A stretch of 64,000 bases of DNA from Lysobacteraceae bacterium (GCA_044340325.1 JBIITV010000003.1:2734-66733); one strand, 5' to 3'; shown: positions 32,401 through 39,844, counted from the first letter of the stretch. Numbers and translations: made by a program. The notes: generated by a model not told the origin, from the sequence alone.

Positions 32401-33357
32401 ATGACGACCGTTTCACCCCGGCATGGATGGCGGTACCGTGCACGGCTCGCACGCGTGGTGGCAGCGCTGGCATGCGCCGCCGCGCTGTGGCCGGCGCTGG
32501 CGATGGCGCAGGAAGAACCCTGGGTGCCGCTGGACCGCGCGCCGGACGATATCGAACGCCTGCTGCTGGGGCTCAAGACCGCCGAAACCGGCCTGCCGCT
32601 GGCGGTACGTCGCGGCATGCTGCGACGCGTGGAGGCCATCGACGTGGCGCGCGCGGACGGGCCGCCGGACCGCTACCTGCGCATGAAGCACGAAGCCGAC
32701 GGCATGTATTTCAGCGCCACCGTGCGCAGCTTCGCCGGCAGTCGCAGCGAAGACACGGTCTATCTGCTGCAGTCCGGCAGCGAGATCGATGGCTGCGCAG
32801 GGCTCAAGGCGCTGCTGACCCCAGGCGAACGCGTCGGCCGCAAATTCTGCGTGTTCGACGAAGCGCAGGGCGCTGCCCGCATCCATCCCGATGCCGACGA
32901 ACGCTTCGGCTTTTCCGCCTATCGCCTCGATGGCCGTGGACGTGCCCGCAACGTCACCCGCCGGGTATTGCCCGACGATCCGCTGCTGGCTCTGCGCGAT
33001 CGCACCGAGTACGCAGTGCACGATGAGACCGGCGCGCATCGCGGCGTTTCGGTGGACATGAGCCGTTTGTCCGAGGCGCCGGTGCTGCGGCTGTATGCCG
33101 ATCTGGGCGACGGAGTCGGCTTGCCGCGCACCCATCCGCGCGCCTTCACCGCCGGCTATCCGGGGCCGGCCCACACCGCGCATTTCGGATTCCTGGTGTG
33201 GAACGGCCAGCGGTTCGAGCTGCGCAACGCGGTGCCGCGCGCGCTGTGGCCCTGCACCTTCGACGCCAGTTTCTCGCCCAGCGGCCAGAGTTGTCTGGAC
33301 CGCGACCCCGACCCATTTATCGCCCCGTTCATCGTGCCTGCCACCGACGCGCCCTGA
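32401..33357 (+). CDS. Secreted putative T4SS immunity protein (X-Tfi-like)
   Basis: Signal peptide (ALWPALAMA-QE); C-terminal AHFGFLVWNGQRFELR...LWPC; 28 bp upstream of the effector-like gene. Confidence 0.65.
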   Translation: MTTVSPRHGWRYRARLARVVAALACAAALWPALAMAQEEPWVPLDRAPDDIERLLLGLKTAETGLPLAVRRGMLRRVEAIDVARADGPPDRYLRMKHEADGMYFSATVRSFAGSRSEDTVYLLQSGSEIDGCAGLKALLTPGERVGRKFCVFDEAQGAARIHPDADERFGFSAYRLDGRGRARNVTRRVLPDDPLLALRDRTEYAVHDETGAHRGVSVDMSRLSEAPVLRLYADLGDGVGLPRTHPRAFTAGYPGPAHTAHFGFLVWNGQRFELRNAVPRALWPCTFDASFSPSGQSCLDRDPDPFIAPFIVPATDAP

Positions 33358-33385
33358 CGCGCGTCTTTCGCAGAAGGAAATCGTC

Positions 33386-34963
33386 ATGACCGAACCTTTC
33401 GACATCAGCGCCAGCGCCGACCGGGTGGTCGCGCTGCTCAACGCCAACCGTGCCGCAGATGCAATACGCCTGCTGGAACAGCAGCGCCAGGACCAGCCGC
33501 AGGCGATCCAGGAATCGCTGGACCGGATGGTCTCCTATCGCGGCCGCGATGCCATCGGCCGGCTGCAGCAGGATGTCATCCGCAGCATGGACCCGCTGGC
33601 CGATCCCGACGCCGCCCTGGTCCACACCGGGATGGCCCGATTGGGGAACGCCGGCGGTGCGCCGCGCTTCCCCACCGAAACCGAAGTGGGTGCGCTCACC
33701 GCCACCCAGCGCTACGACGTGTACGCCAGCATCATCGAAACCCGCGGCAACGATGCCGCGCGCGAATCGCTGCGCAACGGCGACCGCGTCGTGCTCGGCC
33801 TGCGTCAGGAAAACTCGACCGTCGATTCCGCCACCCGCGATGCGCCCGGCCAGGTCGCAACCGACAATCCGGCGACCAGGGTCAATGAATCGCGGCTCGG
33901 CACCGGTGTCTACGACGACCGCATTGTCGTGCTTGGCCAGCGCACGCCGCCGGGCGGTGAGCCTCAAGTCTGGCAGTTCAACCACTCCACCACCGAACCC
34001 ACCGCGCAGTACGACGCGCATGCCCAGGGCCGCACCCGCGAAGAGCCCTACACCCACGTCCAGCGTCGGCGCGGCGAGGGCGAGGACGTGAATGGCGACC
34101 GTGTGGCCGACATGGGCCGTCTGCGCGAAGGCACCGTCGAAATGCTGGCCACCACCCACCCGCGACCGGGCGGCGGGCGGGACGACTTCTCGCTGCGGCC
34201 CACGCCAGAAGCGGTGACCGCCAGCCCCCAAGGCGTGCAGCGCGACACCAATGCCGACGGCCGCTTCGATGCCAACGACCCCAACGGCCTGCAGCCGCTG
34301 AACAACACCTTCAAGATCCACCGTGGTTCGGCGGGCAACACCGACTCCGCCGGCTGCCAGACCATTCGCGGCGCGGACTACGACACCTTCGTCGATGCCG
34401 TGCGCGGTAATCCCGGCCAGACCCGCTGGCAGTACGTGCTGACCAATACCGATCCCGGCCAGCAGCCGGTGCAGGGCCTGCAGGCGCCTGGTGTGCAACC
34501 GCAGGGCGCGCAGCCGCAGGGCGTGCCCGAAGGCCAGGCGCCGCGTGGCCCGCAGCCGCCGCCGGAGCTGCAGCTGGCGCCGCCGGCGCCAGCGAACGAC
34601 CGTACCAGCGCGTTGCCCCGCGATTCGCTGATGGAGCGGATCGAACAGAGTCTCGACCGCAGCGGTACTGCGCAGAGCATGAGCGCCGAACAGCGCGACA
34701 ACGTGCTTGCGGCGTCGTACAACGCGCTCTCGCGGTTGCCGCGCGTCGATCACATCGGCGTCTACAACGGCAACGTCGTCGGCACCTATGCGCCCAGCGG
34801 CCTCGGCACCGAACCTATGCACAACGTCCCGGTGGACATCGCCCGCGTGCAGAACACGCCAGCGGCGCAGAGTCTTGCCTCGGCCGAACGCAGCCAGCAG
34901 GAACGCACGCAGATCGCGCAGCAGGTCGAAGAACCCCGCAGCATGGGCGCGCGCGCCGCTTAG
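33386..34963 (+). CDS. Putative T4SS antibacterial effector (X-Tfe-like) with a His-Cys catalytic motif and a divergent XVIPCD-like C-terminus
   Basis: No signal peptide; KIHRGSAGNTDSAGCQT (H-x-S-x-G-C); Q/P/G-rich linker; C-terminal RVDHI...NTPAAQSL with a Q-rich tail. Confidence 0.7.
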   Translation: MTEPFDISASADRVVALLNANRAADAIRLLEQQRQDQPQAIQESLDRMVSYRGRDAIGRLQQDVIRSMDPLADPDAALVHTGMARLGNAGGAPRFPTETEVGALTATQRYDVYASIIETRGNDAARESLRNGDRVVLGLRQENSTVDSATRDAPGQVATDNPATRVNESRLGTGVYDDRIVVLGQRTPPGGEPQVWQFNHSTTEPTAQYDAHAQGRTREEPYTHVQRRRGEGEDVNGDRVADMGRLREGTVEMLATTHPRPGGGRDDFSLRPTPEAVTASPQGVQRDTNADGRFDANDPNGLQPLNNTFKIHRGSAGNTDSAGCQTIRGADYDTFVDAVRGNPGQTRWQYVLTNTDPGQQPVQGLQAPGVQPQGAQPQGVPEGQAPRGPQPPPELQLAPPAPANDRTSALPRDSLMERIEQSLDRSGTAQSMSAEQRDNVLAASYNALSRLPRVDHIGVYNGNVVGTYAPSGLGTEPMHNVPVDIARVQNTPAAQSLASAERSQQERTQIAQQVEEPRSMGARAA

Positions 34964-35003: not shown

Positions 35004-35297
35004 TCAATCCGCCGGTTTGGCGGCAGCGGCGTCGTCCTTCGCGGGTGCGACGCCTTTCGCTTCCGGCGGACGGATCGACTTCAACGTATGGGTGTTGCCG
35101 AGGACTTCGATCATGCCGCCGGCGCGCTGGAAGGCGGCCAGATCGTCGGCGATCTTCTCGTGGGTCAGCGTGCTGCGTTTGTCTTCTTTCGGCTTGCGGA
35201 ACAGATCCACGGTCGACGAAGACGATGTCGTGGCTGGCTTCGGTGCCGGCACCGGTGCGGCGGCGGCGGGAGCAGGGTCGGATTGCTTGCGTGTCAT
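35004..35297 (-). CDS. Small hypothetical protein of a type seen in Xanthomonadales
   Basis: IADDLAAFQRAGGMIEVLGNT core flanked by Ala/Pro/Lys-rich ends. Confidence 0.65.
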   Translation of the reverse strand: MTRKQSDPAPAAAAPVPAPKPATTSSSSTVDLFRKPKEDKRSTLTHEKIADDLAAFQRAGGMIEVLGNTHTLKSIRPPEAKGVAPAKDDAAAAKPAD

Positions 35298-35307
35298 CGG
35301 CGTGGTC

Positions 35308-35628
35308 TCAACTCATCAGAGCGATCGGAACGGCAGGATGCGCGTTGGCGGCTTCAGCACGCACATCGCGGCAATACGGACCGGCCATCGCGAATTTGCG
35401 GCAGATGGTCGGGCGGGTGTCATAGATGCCGCAGTTCATGCGCGCACTGTTCAGTGCGACGCACCAGCCGTCGGCGTCGCGCGCCATCACCGTCACGCCC
35501 TGCGCATTGCGCTCGGTCAGGTGCGCCGGAATCGCGTCTTCCTCGAACAGCACCACAGTGAGACGACAGCAGAGGGCATCGCAACGGCTGCAGTGCACGC
35601 CCTTTTCGCGGGCGGCGGTGGGAATCAT
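35308..35628 (-). CDS. YkgJ family cysteine-cluster (putative Fe-S/Zn) protein
   Basis: CSRCDALCC...WC...CGIYDTRPTICR...C. Confidence 0.88.
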   Translation of the reverse strand: MIPTAAREKGVHCSRCDALCCRLTVVLFEEDAIPAHLTERNAQGVTVMARDADGWCVALNSARMNCGIYDTRPTICRKFAMAGPYCRDVRAEAANAHPAVPIALMS

Positions 35629-36068
35629 CGGGACACCGCGTCGGCGACGTTGTCCGGCTGAAAGACAGGAGGGATGGAGCGTGCGGGCATGATGGCTCCC
35701 GAAGGGCGTCACCCCGGGCGGGGTGTTGACGCGGTAAAGGGAGCGGAGCGAGCCGGATGGAGACTGCAGGCCGGACGGACGGGCCGTATTGCAATTCGGG
35801 ACGCAACGCGCGAATGCAGCGTTTGCGCAGCCATCCTACAGCAAGGACCGAATCCGCGCCCGGGCGTTCAGGTTTCGCGGCGATCCGGGCTGCGGCGTCT
35901 TAGGCAGGCAGTGGCGTATCGTCGGCCGCAATCCTATGCTCGGCCTTCGCGCCTCCCTGCGGTTCGCCAGGCTTTCACGCGATTCGCCTTCGCAGTGGCA
36001 TCACGTCATGGGTGGGCGTCTCGAACTGTCCGGATTGCCAAGCCCAGTGGCGTATCGCAGATGAAGAC

Positions 36069-37979: not shown

Positions 37980-38201
37980 GTGCCTGTCCAGCGCTTGGGA
38001 GTGGCCGCAGTGTAGGTCGCGTCCTGGAGCGCGACAATATAGGCGGGCGAAGCGCGTCCGGAAGGCGCCGCTTTGCCGCAGTAGGCACGCGCCTATTGTG
38101 CTGGGTTGCGCTCGTTGGCGAGCCCTTCAAGGCCGGTGAGTTGCATTGTCGATAGCGGGGTGCGACAAAGGTTGCCGCTGCGGTTCGTCCTGCGCGATGC
38201 T

Positions 38202-38252
38202 TTCCTTAGCCCCGCGTGCGGTGAGAGGATGCCCGCAGGGCGGGTGAGGGGC
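38202..38252. repeat. Degenerate REP-like element (CCTTCTCCCC...GGTGAGGGG family)
   Basis: ttccttagccccgcgtgcggtgagagg...gcgggtgaggggc resembles 52598-52704. Confidence 0.45.
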
Positions 38253-38494
38253 TGCCCTCGAAGTGGGCTAACACCAGCATGCGTTCAATCTGTGTCTGCG
38301 TAGCGTTCTATTGGGTGGGGTGTGATCAAGCCCGTCGCAAAGTAAACCTCGGTATTCAATAGATTCTTTGAAAGCAGTAATCGACTTTGATCGTTTAGCT
38401 AAGTCGCTAAGCGTCGCGATAACGGTTATGACTATAGATTGATAAAAGACTTGCAGGATTTTTAGTCTCTTGGGCTGAAGTAGGGAGAGGGATA

Positions 38495-39379
38495 GTGGCT
38501 AATGCGGTTTTCACGGCGTCGGAAAGCAGTGCATATGACGATCAAATTGAGCGACGGTATCACTTCCCAAAAACCTATCTCAGGCAGGTTGAGAGCGCTG
38601 TCGGAGATTTGATCGTCTATTACGAGCCACGACGTACGACTGGACCTTCGAGTGCAACTGGAAGGCAGGCGTACTTTGCGACTGCGCGGGTTGTTGATAT
38701 ACGGCCAGATCTTGACCGTAAAGACCATTTTTATGCGGATGTTGAGGATTTTATTGAGTTTGATAAGCCGATTTCATTCAGGGTCGATGAGATCTATTAC
38801 GAGTCGTTGCTGAAGAAAGCCGACGGTTCAGCCAACAAAGGTGCATTCGGAAGATCTGTCCGAAATATCCCAAGCGATGAGTTTGAGCGCATTTTAAGGG
38901 CTGGATTTTCAACGCCGCTGGAGCCATGGGAGATTGCGGATAGAGTTGCGGAAACGCCTGCAGAATACGCAATTAGGCCCATCATTGAGCGTGTTGTTTC
39001 GAGGCCATTTCGTGATGCCGCCTTCCGGCGGCATGTCAGAAATGTTTACGGTAATCGTTGCGCTGTGACGGGATTGAGGCTTGTCAACGGAGGCGGGAGG
39101 CCAGAGGTGCAAGCGGCGCATATTCGACCGGTCGAAGCTGATGGACCAGATACTGTCCGCAATGGCATCGCATTGACAGGGACAGCGCATTGGCTATTCG
39201 ACAGGGGGCTGATCTCATTCTCTGACAATCACGAGGTGTTGATTTCGTCGCACGGCGTCCCTGATGATGTGGATAAATTGATTCCACGGGAAAGAAAATT
39301 ACTACTGCCAGAAAACCCAGATTGGCAGCCTCACAGAGTCTATCTTGGTTGGCACCGTGAAAAGATATTCAAATGGTAA
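38495..39379 (+). CDS. HNH endonuclease, COG3440-like putative restriction nuclease with an N-terminal recognition domain
   Basis: FRDAAFRRHV...CAVTG...QAAHIRP...DTVRNGIAL...HWLFDRGL; N-terminal YDD...YHFP...DLIVYYE. Confidence 0.85.
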   Translation: MANAVFTASESSAYDDQIERRYHFPKTYLRQVESAVGDLIVYYEPRRTTGPSSATGRQAYFATARVVDIRPDLDRKDHFYADVEDFIEFDKPISFRVDEIYYESLLKKADGSANKGAFGRSVRNIPSDEFERILRAGFSTPLEPWEIADRVAETPAEYAIRPIIERVVSRPFRDAAFRRHVRNVYGNRCAVTGLRLVNGGGRPEVQAAHIRPVEADGPDTVRNGIALTGTAHWLFDRGLISFSDNHEVLISSHGVPDDVDKLIPRERKLLLPENPDWQPHRVYLGWHREKIFKW

Positions 39380-39466
39380 CTTAAGGCCATTGATGACTGG
39401 TTGATGCATCGCGATGCGAGATCGTTTTCGTCTAAATTCCTTCGATATCGAAAATCAATTATCCGC

Positions 39467-39766
39467 ATGAGTTCTTCAGTTGAATTAATTTCAGAAGTGG
39501 ATTTTCATGATTCTTGGGGCGTTATTACCAAGGAGTCTGGAGACTTGTTCCAATATTCTGAAGTTTCTAGCCATGCTCCGAATCTTGTATGGACGATTGT
39601 AGAGTCTGGTTGCCACGACGATGAAAATTGGTATGCAATCCCGGGGATTCATCATGTCAATCGTTTGGGGTTTGTGCTTACCCAGCGAGAATGGATGGAT
39701 GCATCAGTCCAAGCCATTTACTTCGAAAACGATATGCAGTGTGACGATGAGGTTCAAGAAAGCTAG
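39467..39766 (+). CDS. Small acidic hypothetical protein
   Basis: VWTIVES...WYAIPGIHHVNRLGFVLT; same low-GC islet. Confidence 0.6.
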   Translation: MSSSVELISEVDFHDSWGVITKESGDLFQYSEVSSHAPNLVWTIVESGCHDDENWYAIPGIHHVNRLGFVLTQREWMDASVQAIYFENDMQCDDEVQES

Positions 39767-39844
39767 GGGTTATTGTTGCGGCACTTCTCTCTTGGTGAAT
39801 CAAGCAGATGGGTCCGTCCTCTATCGATTTTGATACATGAAGAT

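Follow-up and report, generated by a model that had tools for sequence, protein, structure and literature searches.

The window analysed here is a stretch of 64,000 nucleotides from a Lysobacteraceae bacterium (GCA_044340325.1, JBIITV010000003.1:2734-66733), which carries at positions 32,401 to 34,963 the two genes under study, gene A and gene B, coding for the proteins P0001 and P0002. We found that these genes very probably form an effector-immunity pair of the X-type type IV secretion system (X-T4SS), with P0002 as the candidate effector (X-Tfe) and P0001 as the candidate immunity protein (X-Tfi). The toxin domain of P0002 is probably a Cys/His peptidoglycan peptidase of the Tlde1 lineage, and we hold both statements together, an X-T4SS pair armed with such a peptidase, to be likely, slightly less so than the second one alone. 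A first-pass annotation, made from the sequence alone, had already proposed an effector-immunity pair of the X-T4SS, and this was upheld by the XVIPCD names given to family members, by profile matches to solved XVIPCD structures, by a T4SS in the genome and by the linkage of the two genes across genera.

Effector candidate, exported partner and secretion system

The pair region, of ~68% G+C, contains two co-directional open reading frames (ORFs), and both were as the first-pass annotation had described them. The upstream one codes for 318 amino acids (aa) with a signal peptide, read by eye, and the downstream one for 525 aa without signal peptide. A gap of 28 nt separates the stop codon of gene A from gene B, so that the two genes are likely to be an operon, and a scan found no sigma-70-like promoter or intrinsic terminator between them or after them. 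The gene B product has no N-terminal hydrophobic segment and its homologues start at the same methionine. The N-terminus of P0001 showed five arginine residues in positions 7-18, followed by the hydrophobic stretch VVAALACAAALWPALAMA and then by QEE, and was read by eye as a Sec signal peptide. Pfam and NCBIfam scans gave zero families for either protein, even at E <= 1 for the whole proteins and E <= 10 for single domains, and phmmer searches of P0001 and P0002 against PDB sequences gave nothing meaningful.

A search of 5.8 billion proteins led to 294 homologues of P0002. The named ones, from Xanthomonas, Stenotrophomonas, Lysobacter and Luteimonas, are called "XVIPCD domain-containing protein" or "X-Tfes-like", and the nearest relatives (83-88%) come from Thermomonas and from Lysobacteraceae metagenome-assembled genomes (MAGs), the group in which the bacterium studied here probably has its place. 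The profile of the effector family, like the conservation counts given below, was built on 105 members, and it matched the solved XVIPCD structures 9p3h, 7r6s and 7mu9 via the C-terminal third only. The full-length AlphaFold model of P0002 (predicted local distance difference test, pLDDT, 86) is composed of a helical part (residues 1-130), a beta-rich part (131-356), a disordered Gln/Pro linker (359-406) and an alpha/beta part (414-513). With the whole model, the sole confident PDB match obtained by Foldseek was the XVIPCD of 7r6s (probability 1.0). In addition, hhalign of the C-terminus of the clade against the canonical XVIPCD gave E = 1e-4 over 90 columns. Judged from sequence and model, the C-terminal domain of P0002 is taken to be a divergent XVIPCD and presumably the VirD4 signal.

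The first-pass annotation had seen no virB/virD4 genes in the window. Whole-genome Pfam searches indeed placed VirD4, VirB4 and VirB10 off the contig of the window, C59, and the T4SS was located elsewhere in the genome, with VirB1-4, VirB7-11 and VirD4 on contigs C6, C107 and C211. VirD4 is split between the end of C6 and the start of C107; VirB1, B2, B3 and B4 are on C107, and a VirB7-like lipoprotein, VirB8, VirB9, VirB10 and VirB11 are on C211. No VirB gene lies beside the VirD4 fragment on C6, the T4SS locus being divided over the three contigs, and a single VirB/VirD4 system of this kind was detected in the genome. VirB8 carries a ~100-aa Pro/Gln-rich extension and the VirB7-like lipoprotein a TcpQ/N0-like C-terminal domain (a weak match of 24.8 bits, below the Pfam cut-off). 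Since a Pro/Gln extension of VirB8 and an N0-like domain of VirB7 are both among the hallmarks of X-type T4SS (PMC6536674), the system has X-type VirB7 and VirB8 features. A genome free of any T4SS, which the first-pass annotation would have taken as its refutation, is thus not what was found. The description of the pair as an orphan holds insofar as it is distant from the virB locus, which is nothing unusual and normal for such pairs. Among 20 sites of the same genome (L005-L024), 17 other XVIPCD matches were above the Pfam cut-off, in open frames of 200-2208 aa. These 17 matches make up a large X-T4SS effector arsenal, and the 2208-aa frame, on C259, is unusually long for an X-Tfe.

For P0001, we obtained 57 homologues, none annotated and none with a Pfam domain, whose alignment showed two invariant cysteine residues (C132 and C285) and a conserved C-terminal block, HFGFLVWNGxRFELR...WPC. 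Homologues from other genera have a signal peptide or a lipobox at the same position, lipoboxes being present in most of the distant members. The effector and candidate immunity families were found linked in L003, L047 and L049 and on contig C75 of the same genome. In L049, where the effector is 74% identical, a 305-aa immunity relative lies directly upstream, and in Xanthomonas campestris (L047; 1932-3931, 6081-9536) two tandem 305-aa immunity-like copies precede the effector. A ParE-toxin gene, an Mrr-like restriction gene and a type I methylase are located directly downstream of the X. campestris pair, which therefore sits in a defence/mobile island. The order is reversed in Stenotrophomonas maltophilia (L003, GCA_030236935.1, 4001-6232), with a 270-aa lipoprotein relative 3 nt downstream of the effector (BLASTP E = 2e-8); this departs from the published generalisation that X-Tfe immunity genes as a rule lie upstream (PMC6759196). 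The second, paralogous pair of the same genome (C75:12301-15010; 48% and 52% identity) has the same order and the same divergent C-terminal domain. In X. phaseoli pv. phaseoli ATCC 49119 (L131, 1061-3797), the immunity-like gene and the effector are both frameshifted, and the break in the effector, just past the catalytic motif, puts the XVIPCD into a frame of its own.

A periplasmic role in immunity agrees with the predicted export of P0001, with the co-inheritance of the two genes in either order and with their decaying together. It is very improbable that gene A is no immunity gene and that its product is an accessory factor or some exported protein without relation to the toxin, encoded next to it by chance. 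That alternative could point to P0001 having no Pfam, NCBIfam or PDB similarity and to the 316-aa upstream neighbour of a remote toxin-domain relative (L133), which is not homologous to the immunity family. However, the two families are linked in Lysobacteraceae, Xanthomonas, Stenotrophomonas and Vulcaniibacterium despite the changed gene order, and the tandem copies in X. campestris, the frameshifts in both X. phaseoli genes and the predicted export of P0001, to where a cell-wall toxin would act, all speak for an immunity gene.

The pair resembles the known X-Tfe/X-Tfi pairs XAC2609/XAC2610 of X. citri and Smlt3024/Smlt3025 and TfcB of S. maltophilia in its signal-less effector with an XVIPCD-type C-terminus and a Gln-rich tail, in the adjacent exported or lipoprotein partner and in the scattering of such pairs off the virB locus (PMC6759196; PMC8740702). 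It differs from known X-Tfes in a toxin domain that is not of the GH19, lysozyme, lipase, nuclease or Smlt3024 type, and from known X-Tfis in that no solved X-Tfi structure is similar to the P0001 family: P0001, P0179 and the immunity family profile had no match to any solved immunity protein, and the profile had none in the PDB. Assignment to the Smlt3024/Smlt3025 family was rejected, as the effector profile matches the 444-aa entry 9p3h, which, to guess from its length, may be Smlt3024, over the XVIPCD only. Around half of the X-Tfes of S. maltophilia K279a are without recognisable toxic domain (smlt0113, 0332, 0500, 0502, 0505 and 3024; PMC6759196). XAC1164/XAC1165 of X. citri were described as frameshift fragments of a Smlt0113-like effector, with a ~437-aa N-terminal part and a separate XVIPCD ORF (PMC6536674), the same kind of split as seen in X. 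phaseoli. S. maltophilia strains carry a 471-aa member of the effector family and, because the X. phaseoli split fits the XAC1164/XAC1165 account, this family is probably the Smlt0113/XAC1164-65 family, matched here by published description.

Three results weigh against delivery by the X-T4SS. Even at E <= 10, the Pfam XVIPCD model, PF20410, gives no match to P0002 or to P0003, P0007 and P0021, which are closely related to it (on the S. maltophilia family member P0089 it gives 83.6 bits); recognition of the P0002 clade by VirD4 is uncertain because its C-terminal domain is so divergent; and Smlt0113, the probable family member, gave no VirD4 signal in a bacterial two-hybrid assay (BACTH), whose authors note false negatives (PMC11253643). 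One could thus suppose that the pair is not, or no longer, a T4SS substrate, and that P0002 follows another delivery route or is a self-acting wall remodeller with an exported inhibitor, all the more as PF20410 misses the clade yet matches 17 other sites in the genome. Relatives that keep the helical and toxin domains without XVIPCD (P0209, P0212, P0215), or that have WXG100-like heads or LysM-lysozyme fusions, would agree with this. We consider it quite improbable, since the C-terminus of P0002 still folds like an XVIPCD and aligns with it by profile at the E-value given above, the rest of the orthologous family carries canonical XVIPCDs, P0002 is without signal peptide in a genome that has an X-T4SS, and that genome has retained both of its paralogous pairs, which share the divergent tail, in intact form.

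Putative toxin domain of P0002

The motif HRGSAGNTDSAGC, pointed out by the first-pass annotation, was confirmed in P0002, with H312 at 34319, C324 at 34355 and 11 residues between them. In the effector family, C324 (105/105), S321, G323, T319 and G314 do not vary; 103 of the 105 members have H312, and in 104 of them 11 residues separate the H and C positions. The motif residues H, G, T, S, G, C and T are all invariant in 22 remote homologues (30-47% identity) as well, and such conservation shows that the motif is not a chance pattern. The canonical YkuD motif is H-x14-17-[S/T]-H-G-C-h. P0002 departs from it, reading H-x8-S-A-G-C-Q with an alanine in place of the second histidine. A spacing shorter than in canonical YkuD, as the first-pass annotation had it, is thus correct, yet it is not unusual for Tlde1. 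The catalytic residues of Tlde1a are H121, S128 and C131 (bioRxiv 10.1101/2022.08.05.502956), and as this spacing is also short (9, with 13 in the three Tlde1_dom proteins examined), the short spacing is a Tlde1-like trait rather than an anomaly.

Alignment of the toxin domain by hhalign with a Tlde1_dom profile gave a score of 29.7 (P = 4.9e-4, 85 columns), in which the catalytic residues His, Ser and Cys are aligned, compared to 8.7-16.9 for 30 column-shuffled controls and 11.9 for the reversed alignment. In this alignment DLGRLaEGTxEM is paired with nvGPIPxGxYeI, faLRP with l.L.P and TFKIHrGS..NTDSAGCQTI with F.IHgd....aSxGCi, and the second calcium-like loop is an insertion relative to the Tlde1 domains. 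The counterpart of the catalytic motif in the Tlde1_dom proteins reads F-Q-I-H-G-D...S-A-S-x-G-C. The Tlde1 profile was made of three Tlde1_dom proteins from other Gammaproteobacteria (L051-L053), the YkuD profile of 13 domains from this genome and its relatives. With the latter, the comparison did not rise above noise (P = 0.36), even if IH.G and S.GC were locally in register; at this value, no membership of canonical YkuD is claimed.

As full-length Foldseek returned the XVIPCD only, the toxin domain was modelled separately, and residues 128-358 alone gave a model with a pLDDT of 94. The best Foldseek match of this model in the PDB was Pgp2 of Campylobacter jejuni (6XJ7; E = 0.044, probability 0.95), and further matches were Salmonella Tlde1a (three entries) and Csd6 of Helicobacter pylori (4XZZ, rank 12), all three being L,D-carboxypeptidases of the YkuD fold. 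In BFVD, the database of predicted viral structures, matches were stronger than in the PDB: an uncultured phage protein was matched with E = 2e-6 and a template modelling score (TM-score) of 0.53, followed by a "Lysin" of a marine phage (E = 1e-3), a DUF5675 protein and an endolysin of a cyanophage.

We also collected the proteins in which the domain occurs, by running the toxin-domain profile in an exhaustive hidden Markov model search against 1.84 billion representatives. The domain was found in 427 clusters at E <= 1e-3 and in 277 at E <= 1e-10. Outside XVIPCD proteins it forms the extreme C-terminus of longer proteins, whose fusion partners are LysM (often several copies), PG_binding_1, Glucosaminidase, Phage_lysozyme, a VgrG3-like C-terminal lysozyme and CHAP/NlpC-P60; two relatives have WXG100-like heads. 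Apart from these heads, all the clearly annotated partner domains bind or cut the cell wall. Because these partners act on or bind peptidoglycan, it is at any rate very probable that the toxin targets the cell wall, and we regard the fusions, seen at the sequence level, as the strongest indirect evidence for peptidoglycan as target. In four relatives of ~350-375 aa (P0209, P0212, P0215 and L133), the helical and toxin domains are kept and the protein ends directly after the toxin domain, without XVIPCD.

The domain has two DxNxDG-type loops, which are putative Ca2+-binding sites on sequence grounds. In the first one, D234, D238 and D242 are invariant or nearly so among the 105 members, and a weak FG-GAP match in a relative spans this region. 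In the second one, R286, D287, N289, D291, G292, F294 and D298 are each conserved in 105/105.

Compared with Tlde1 (Tae5, DUF2778, PF10908; Salmonella Tlde1a, 7UMA), P0002 has in common the compact His...Ser-x-Gly-Cys motif with the order strand, loop, strand and helix, an upstream GxxxEGTxEM strand that aligns with GPIPxGxYxI of Tlde1, an insert before the catalytic His, at the place of the capping subdomain of Tlde1a, and the (for P0002 proposed) role of an antibacterial effector with a periplasmic partner. In contrast to Tlde1, the domain of P0002 is twice as large, with two DxNxDG loops and no match to PF10908, it is linked to a T4SS signal instead of being delivered by a type VI secretion system (T6SS), and its immunity family is unrelated. 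Pgp2, Csd6 and canonical YkuD share with P0002 the His/Cys dyad and, in the local alignment, the strand order, but they are housekeeping periplasmic enzymes and not toxins.

Other comparisons count against a Tlde1-lineage peptidase. Neither Pfam YkuD (PF03734) nor Tlde1_dom (PF10908, DUF2778) matched the toxin domain at E <= 10; PF10908 had no match anywhere in the genome, and PF03734 had matches at five other loci (four above the cut-off), none of them on C59. To this have to be added the noise-level result with the YkuD profile, the small set of proteins behind the Tlde1 profile and the weak Foldseek values in the PDB, where no E-value was <= 0.001, the best being that of Pgp2, and where TM-scores were 0.27-0.41. 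As none of the Pfam models of YkuD, Tlde1 and XVIPCD matches it, P0002 does not count as a member by these models but as a divergent relative. The YkuD/Tlde1-like His/Cys enzyme of the first-pass annotation was, with this correction, on the whole supported: the Tlde1 profile match, the fold matches and the peptidoglycan fusions agree with it, the Pfam models and the canonical YkuD profile do not.

These failures also leave some room, though we think it unlikely, for an X-T4SS pair whose His/Cys domain has a chemistry other than that of an L,D-carboxypeptidase or transpeptidase on the peptide stem, such as an amidase releasing Braun lipoprotein, a cross-link endopeptidase, or a protease or acyltransferase on another periplasmic target. 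YkuD-fold enzymes include amidases acting on Lpp-peptidoglycan links. The low TM-scores (0.3-0.4), the large family-specific inserts, the two calcium-like loops and the invariant R140, D178, T203, Y209 and R286, absent from Tlde1, would be in line with such a chemistry. However, the structural neighbours, as far as they can be interpreted, are all L,D-carboxypeptidases or lysins of phages, and a target outside the wall is at odds with the fusion partners, every interpretable one of which (WXG100-like heads aside) acts on or binds peptidoglycan.

The taxonomic distribution was obtained by scanning one genome per species. In the Xanthomonadales the toxin domain is present in Lysobacter, Thermomonas, Xanthomonas, Stenotrophomonas, Luteimonas, Pseudoxanthomonas, Vulcaniibacterium, Dokdonella, Marilutibacter and Wohlfahrtiimonas; beyond this order, the domain is found in Hydrogenophaga, Roseateles and a Sphingomonadales MAG. 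The distribution of the effector family tracks the known X-T4SS hosts, Hydrogenophaga included (host list in PMC6536674). Two copies were found under distant labels. The one in Nocardiopsis yanglingensis A18 Scaffold7 (L087, labelled as an actinomycete) is 56% identical to the query, and the one in a MAG labelled Chitinophaga pinensis, of the Bacteroidota (L054), is 88% identical, values as high as those of Stenotrophomonas and Lysobacteraceae copies; both contigs are probably contaminated or mis-binned.

Features of the pair and its surroundings

The coordinates of the pair and of its domains are given in Table 1. At the 3' side of the pair, a 97-aa SutA-like gene and a CxxCxxCC (YkgJ-type) gene lie on the minus strand (window 35004-35712). 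As the 74%-identical relative L049 has the same neighbours, the site of the pair on the chromosome is conserved, and no mobile element is obvious there. Farther away (window 38200-39800), a sharp island of low G+C content, 43-52% compared to about 65%, is probably foreign DNA; it contains ORFs of 294 aa (38495-39379), with an HNH-nuclease-like C-terminus, and of 121 aa (39401-39766). An Rfam search of the entire window gave zero RNA families.

Table 1. Features of the gene pair, numbered from the first nucleotide of the window.
Feature	Position	Strand	Basis
Gene A, immunity candidate (X-Tfi-like), P0001, 318 aa, predicted to be exported	32401..33357	+	ORF, translation, homologue alignment
Predicted Sec signal peptide of gene A, residues 1-35, AMA/Q	32401..32505	+	read by eye; homologues
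Shine-Dalgarno-like AAGGA, 8 nt 5' of the gene B ATG	33374..33378	+	sequence
Gene B, X-T4SS effector candidate (X-Tfe-like), P0002, 525 aa, without signal peptide	33386..34963	+	translation, homologues
All-helical N-terminal domain, residues 1-130, conserved in the family and in some XVIPCD-less relatives	33386..33775	+	model secondary structure; QPxxVQExLDR motif conserved
Toxin domain, residues 131-356, predicted beta-rich Tlde1/YkuD-like cysteine peptidase fold with large inserts	33776..34453	+	model, Foldseek, hhalign
First DxNxD...D loop DVNGDRVAD, putative Ca2+ site	34085..34111	+	conservation counts
Second DxNxDG loop RDTNADGRFDAND, putative Ca2+ site, in the insert before the catalytic His	34241..34279	+	conservation; hhalign insertion
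Predicted catalytic motif FKIHRGSAGNTDSAGCQTI	34310..34366	+	H312 34319-34321, S321 34346-34348, C324 34355-34357
Disordered Gln/Pro/Gly-rich linker, residues 357-410, has QPQGAQPQGV	34454..34615	+	pLDDT < 50 at 359-406; length varies in the family
Divergent XVIPCD-like alpha/beta domain, residues 411-513, then Gln-rich tail; presumed VirD4 signal	34616..34924	+	Foldseek, hhalign

Proposed mechanism and its meaning

In the mechanism that we propose, P0002 would be made in the cytoplasm, its XVIPCD-like C-terminus presumably being recognised by VirD4, and would be passed on contact into a neighbouring bacterium by the VirB machine encoded elsewhere in the genome. In the target cell's periplasm, the central domain would attack the peptide stems of peptidoglycan, with C324 as the nucleophile, H312 as the general base and S321, like S128 of Tlde1a, positioning both. 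The fold, the motif and the associated domains point to an L,D-carboxypeptidase or a transpeptidase-exchange activity as the most likely one, which would block normal cross-linking. P0001, exported and probably disulfide-bonded, would neutralise the toxin in the periplasm of the producer and of sister cells. More speculatively, the two DxNxDG loops suggest a Ca2+-dependent folding, which would favour activity outside the cytoplasm.

This last idea can be extended to a joint proposal that, taken as a whole, is doubtful: the toxin domain would represent an unmodelled, Ca2+-dependent branch of the Tlde1/YkuD L,D-peptidases with the loops as its switch, and the re-modelled XVIPCD of the Lysobacteraceae/Thermomonas clade would be a second class of VirD4 recognition. 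If true, the branch would span at least 427 clusters at 50% identity, covered by no Pfam model, with at least three delivery contexts, namely XVIPCD tails, WXG100-type heads, and LysM-lysozyme wall hydrolases together with phage lysins. The DxNxDG loops would then hold the enzyme in an inactive state in the producer's cytoplasm, where calcium is low, and such a calcium switch would explain why immunity is needed in the periplasm only.

The logic of the pair, a cell-wall toxin with a periplasmic immunity protein, is familiar. The new elements are the unmodelled catalytic domain, the immunity family, and a delivery system to which this fold had not been connected before; in the literature library searched, we found no paper that pairs XVIPCD with a transpeptidase or an X-Tfe with a carboxypeptidase. 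No toxic domain is recognisable in about half of the X-T4SS effectors predicted for Stenotrophomonas and Xanthomonas (PMC6759196). With the present analysis, a widespread X-Tfe family so far without assigned function gains a hypothesis, in which a Cys/His L,D-peptidase would attack peptidoglycan through catalytic residues that can be named and would have an exported immunity family as its cognate partner. One divergent fold would in this way link cell-wall enzymes of T4SS, T6SS and phage lysins; the domain itself occurs in hundreds of clusters and is missed by current Pfam models.

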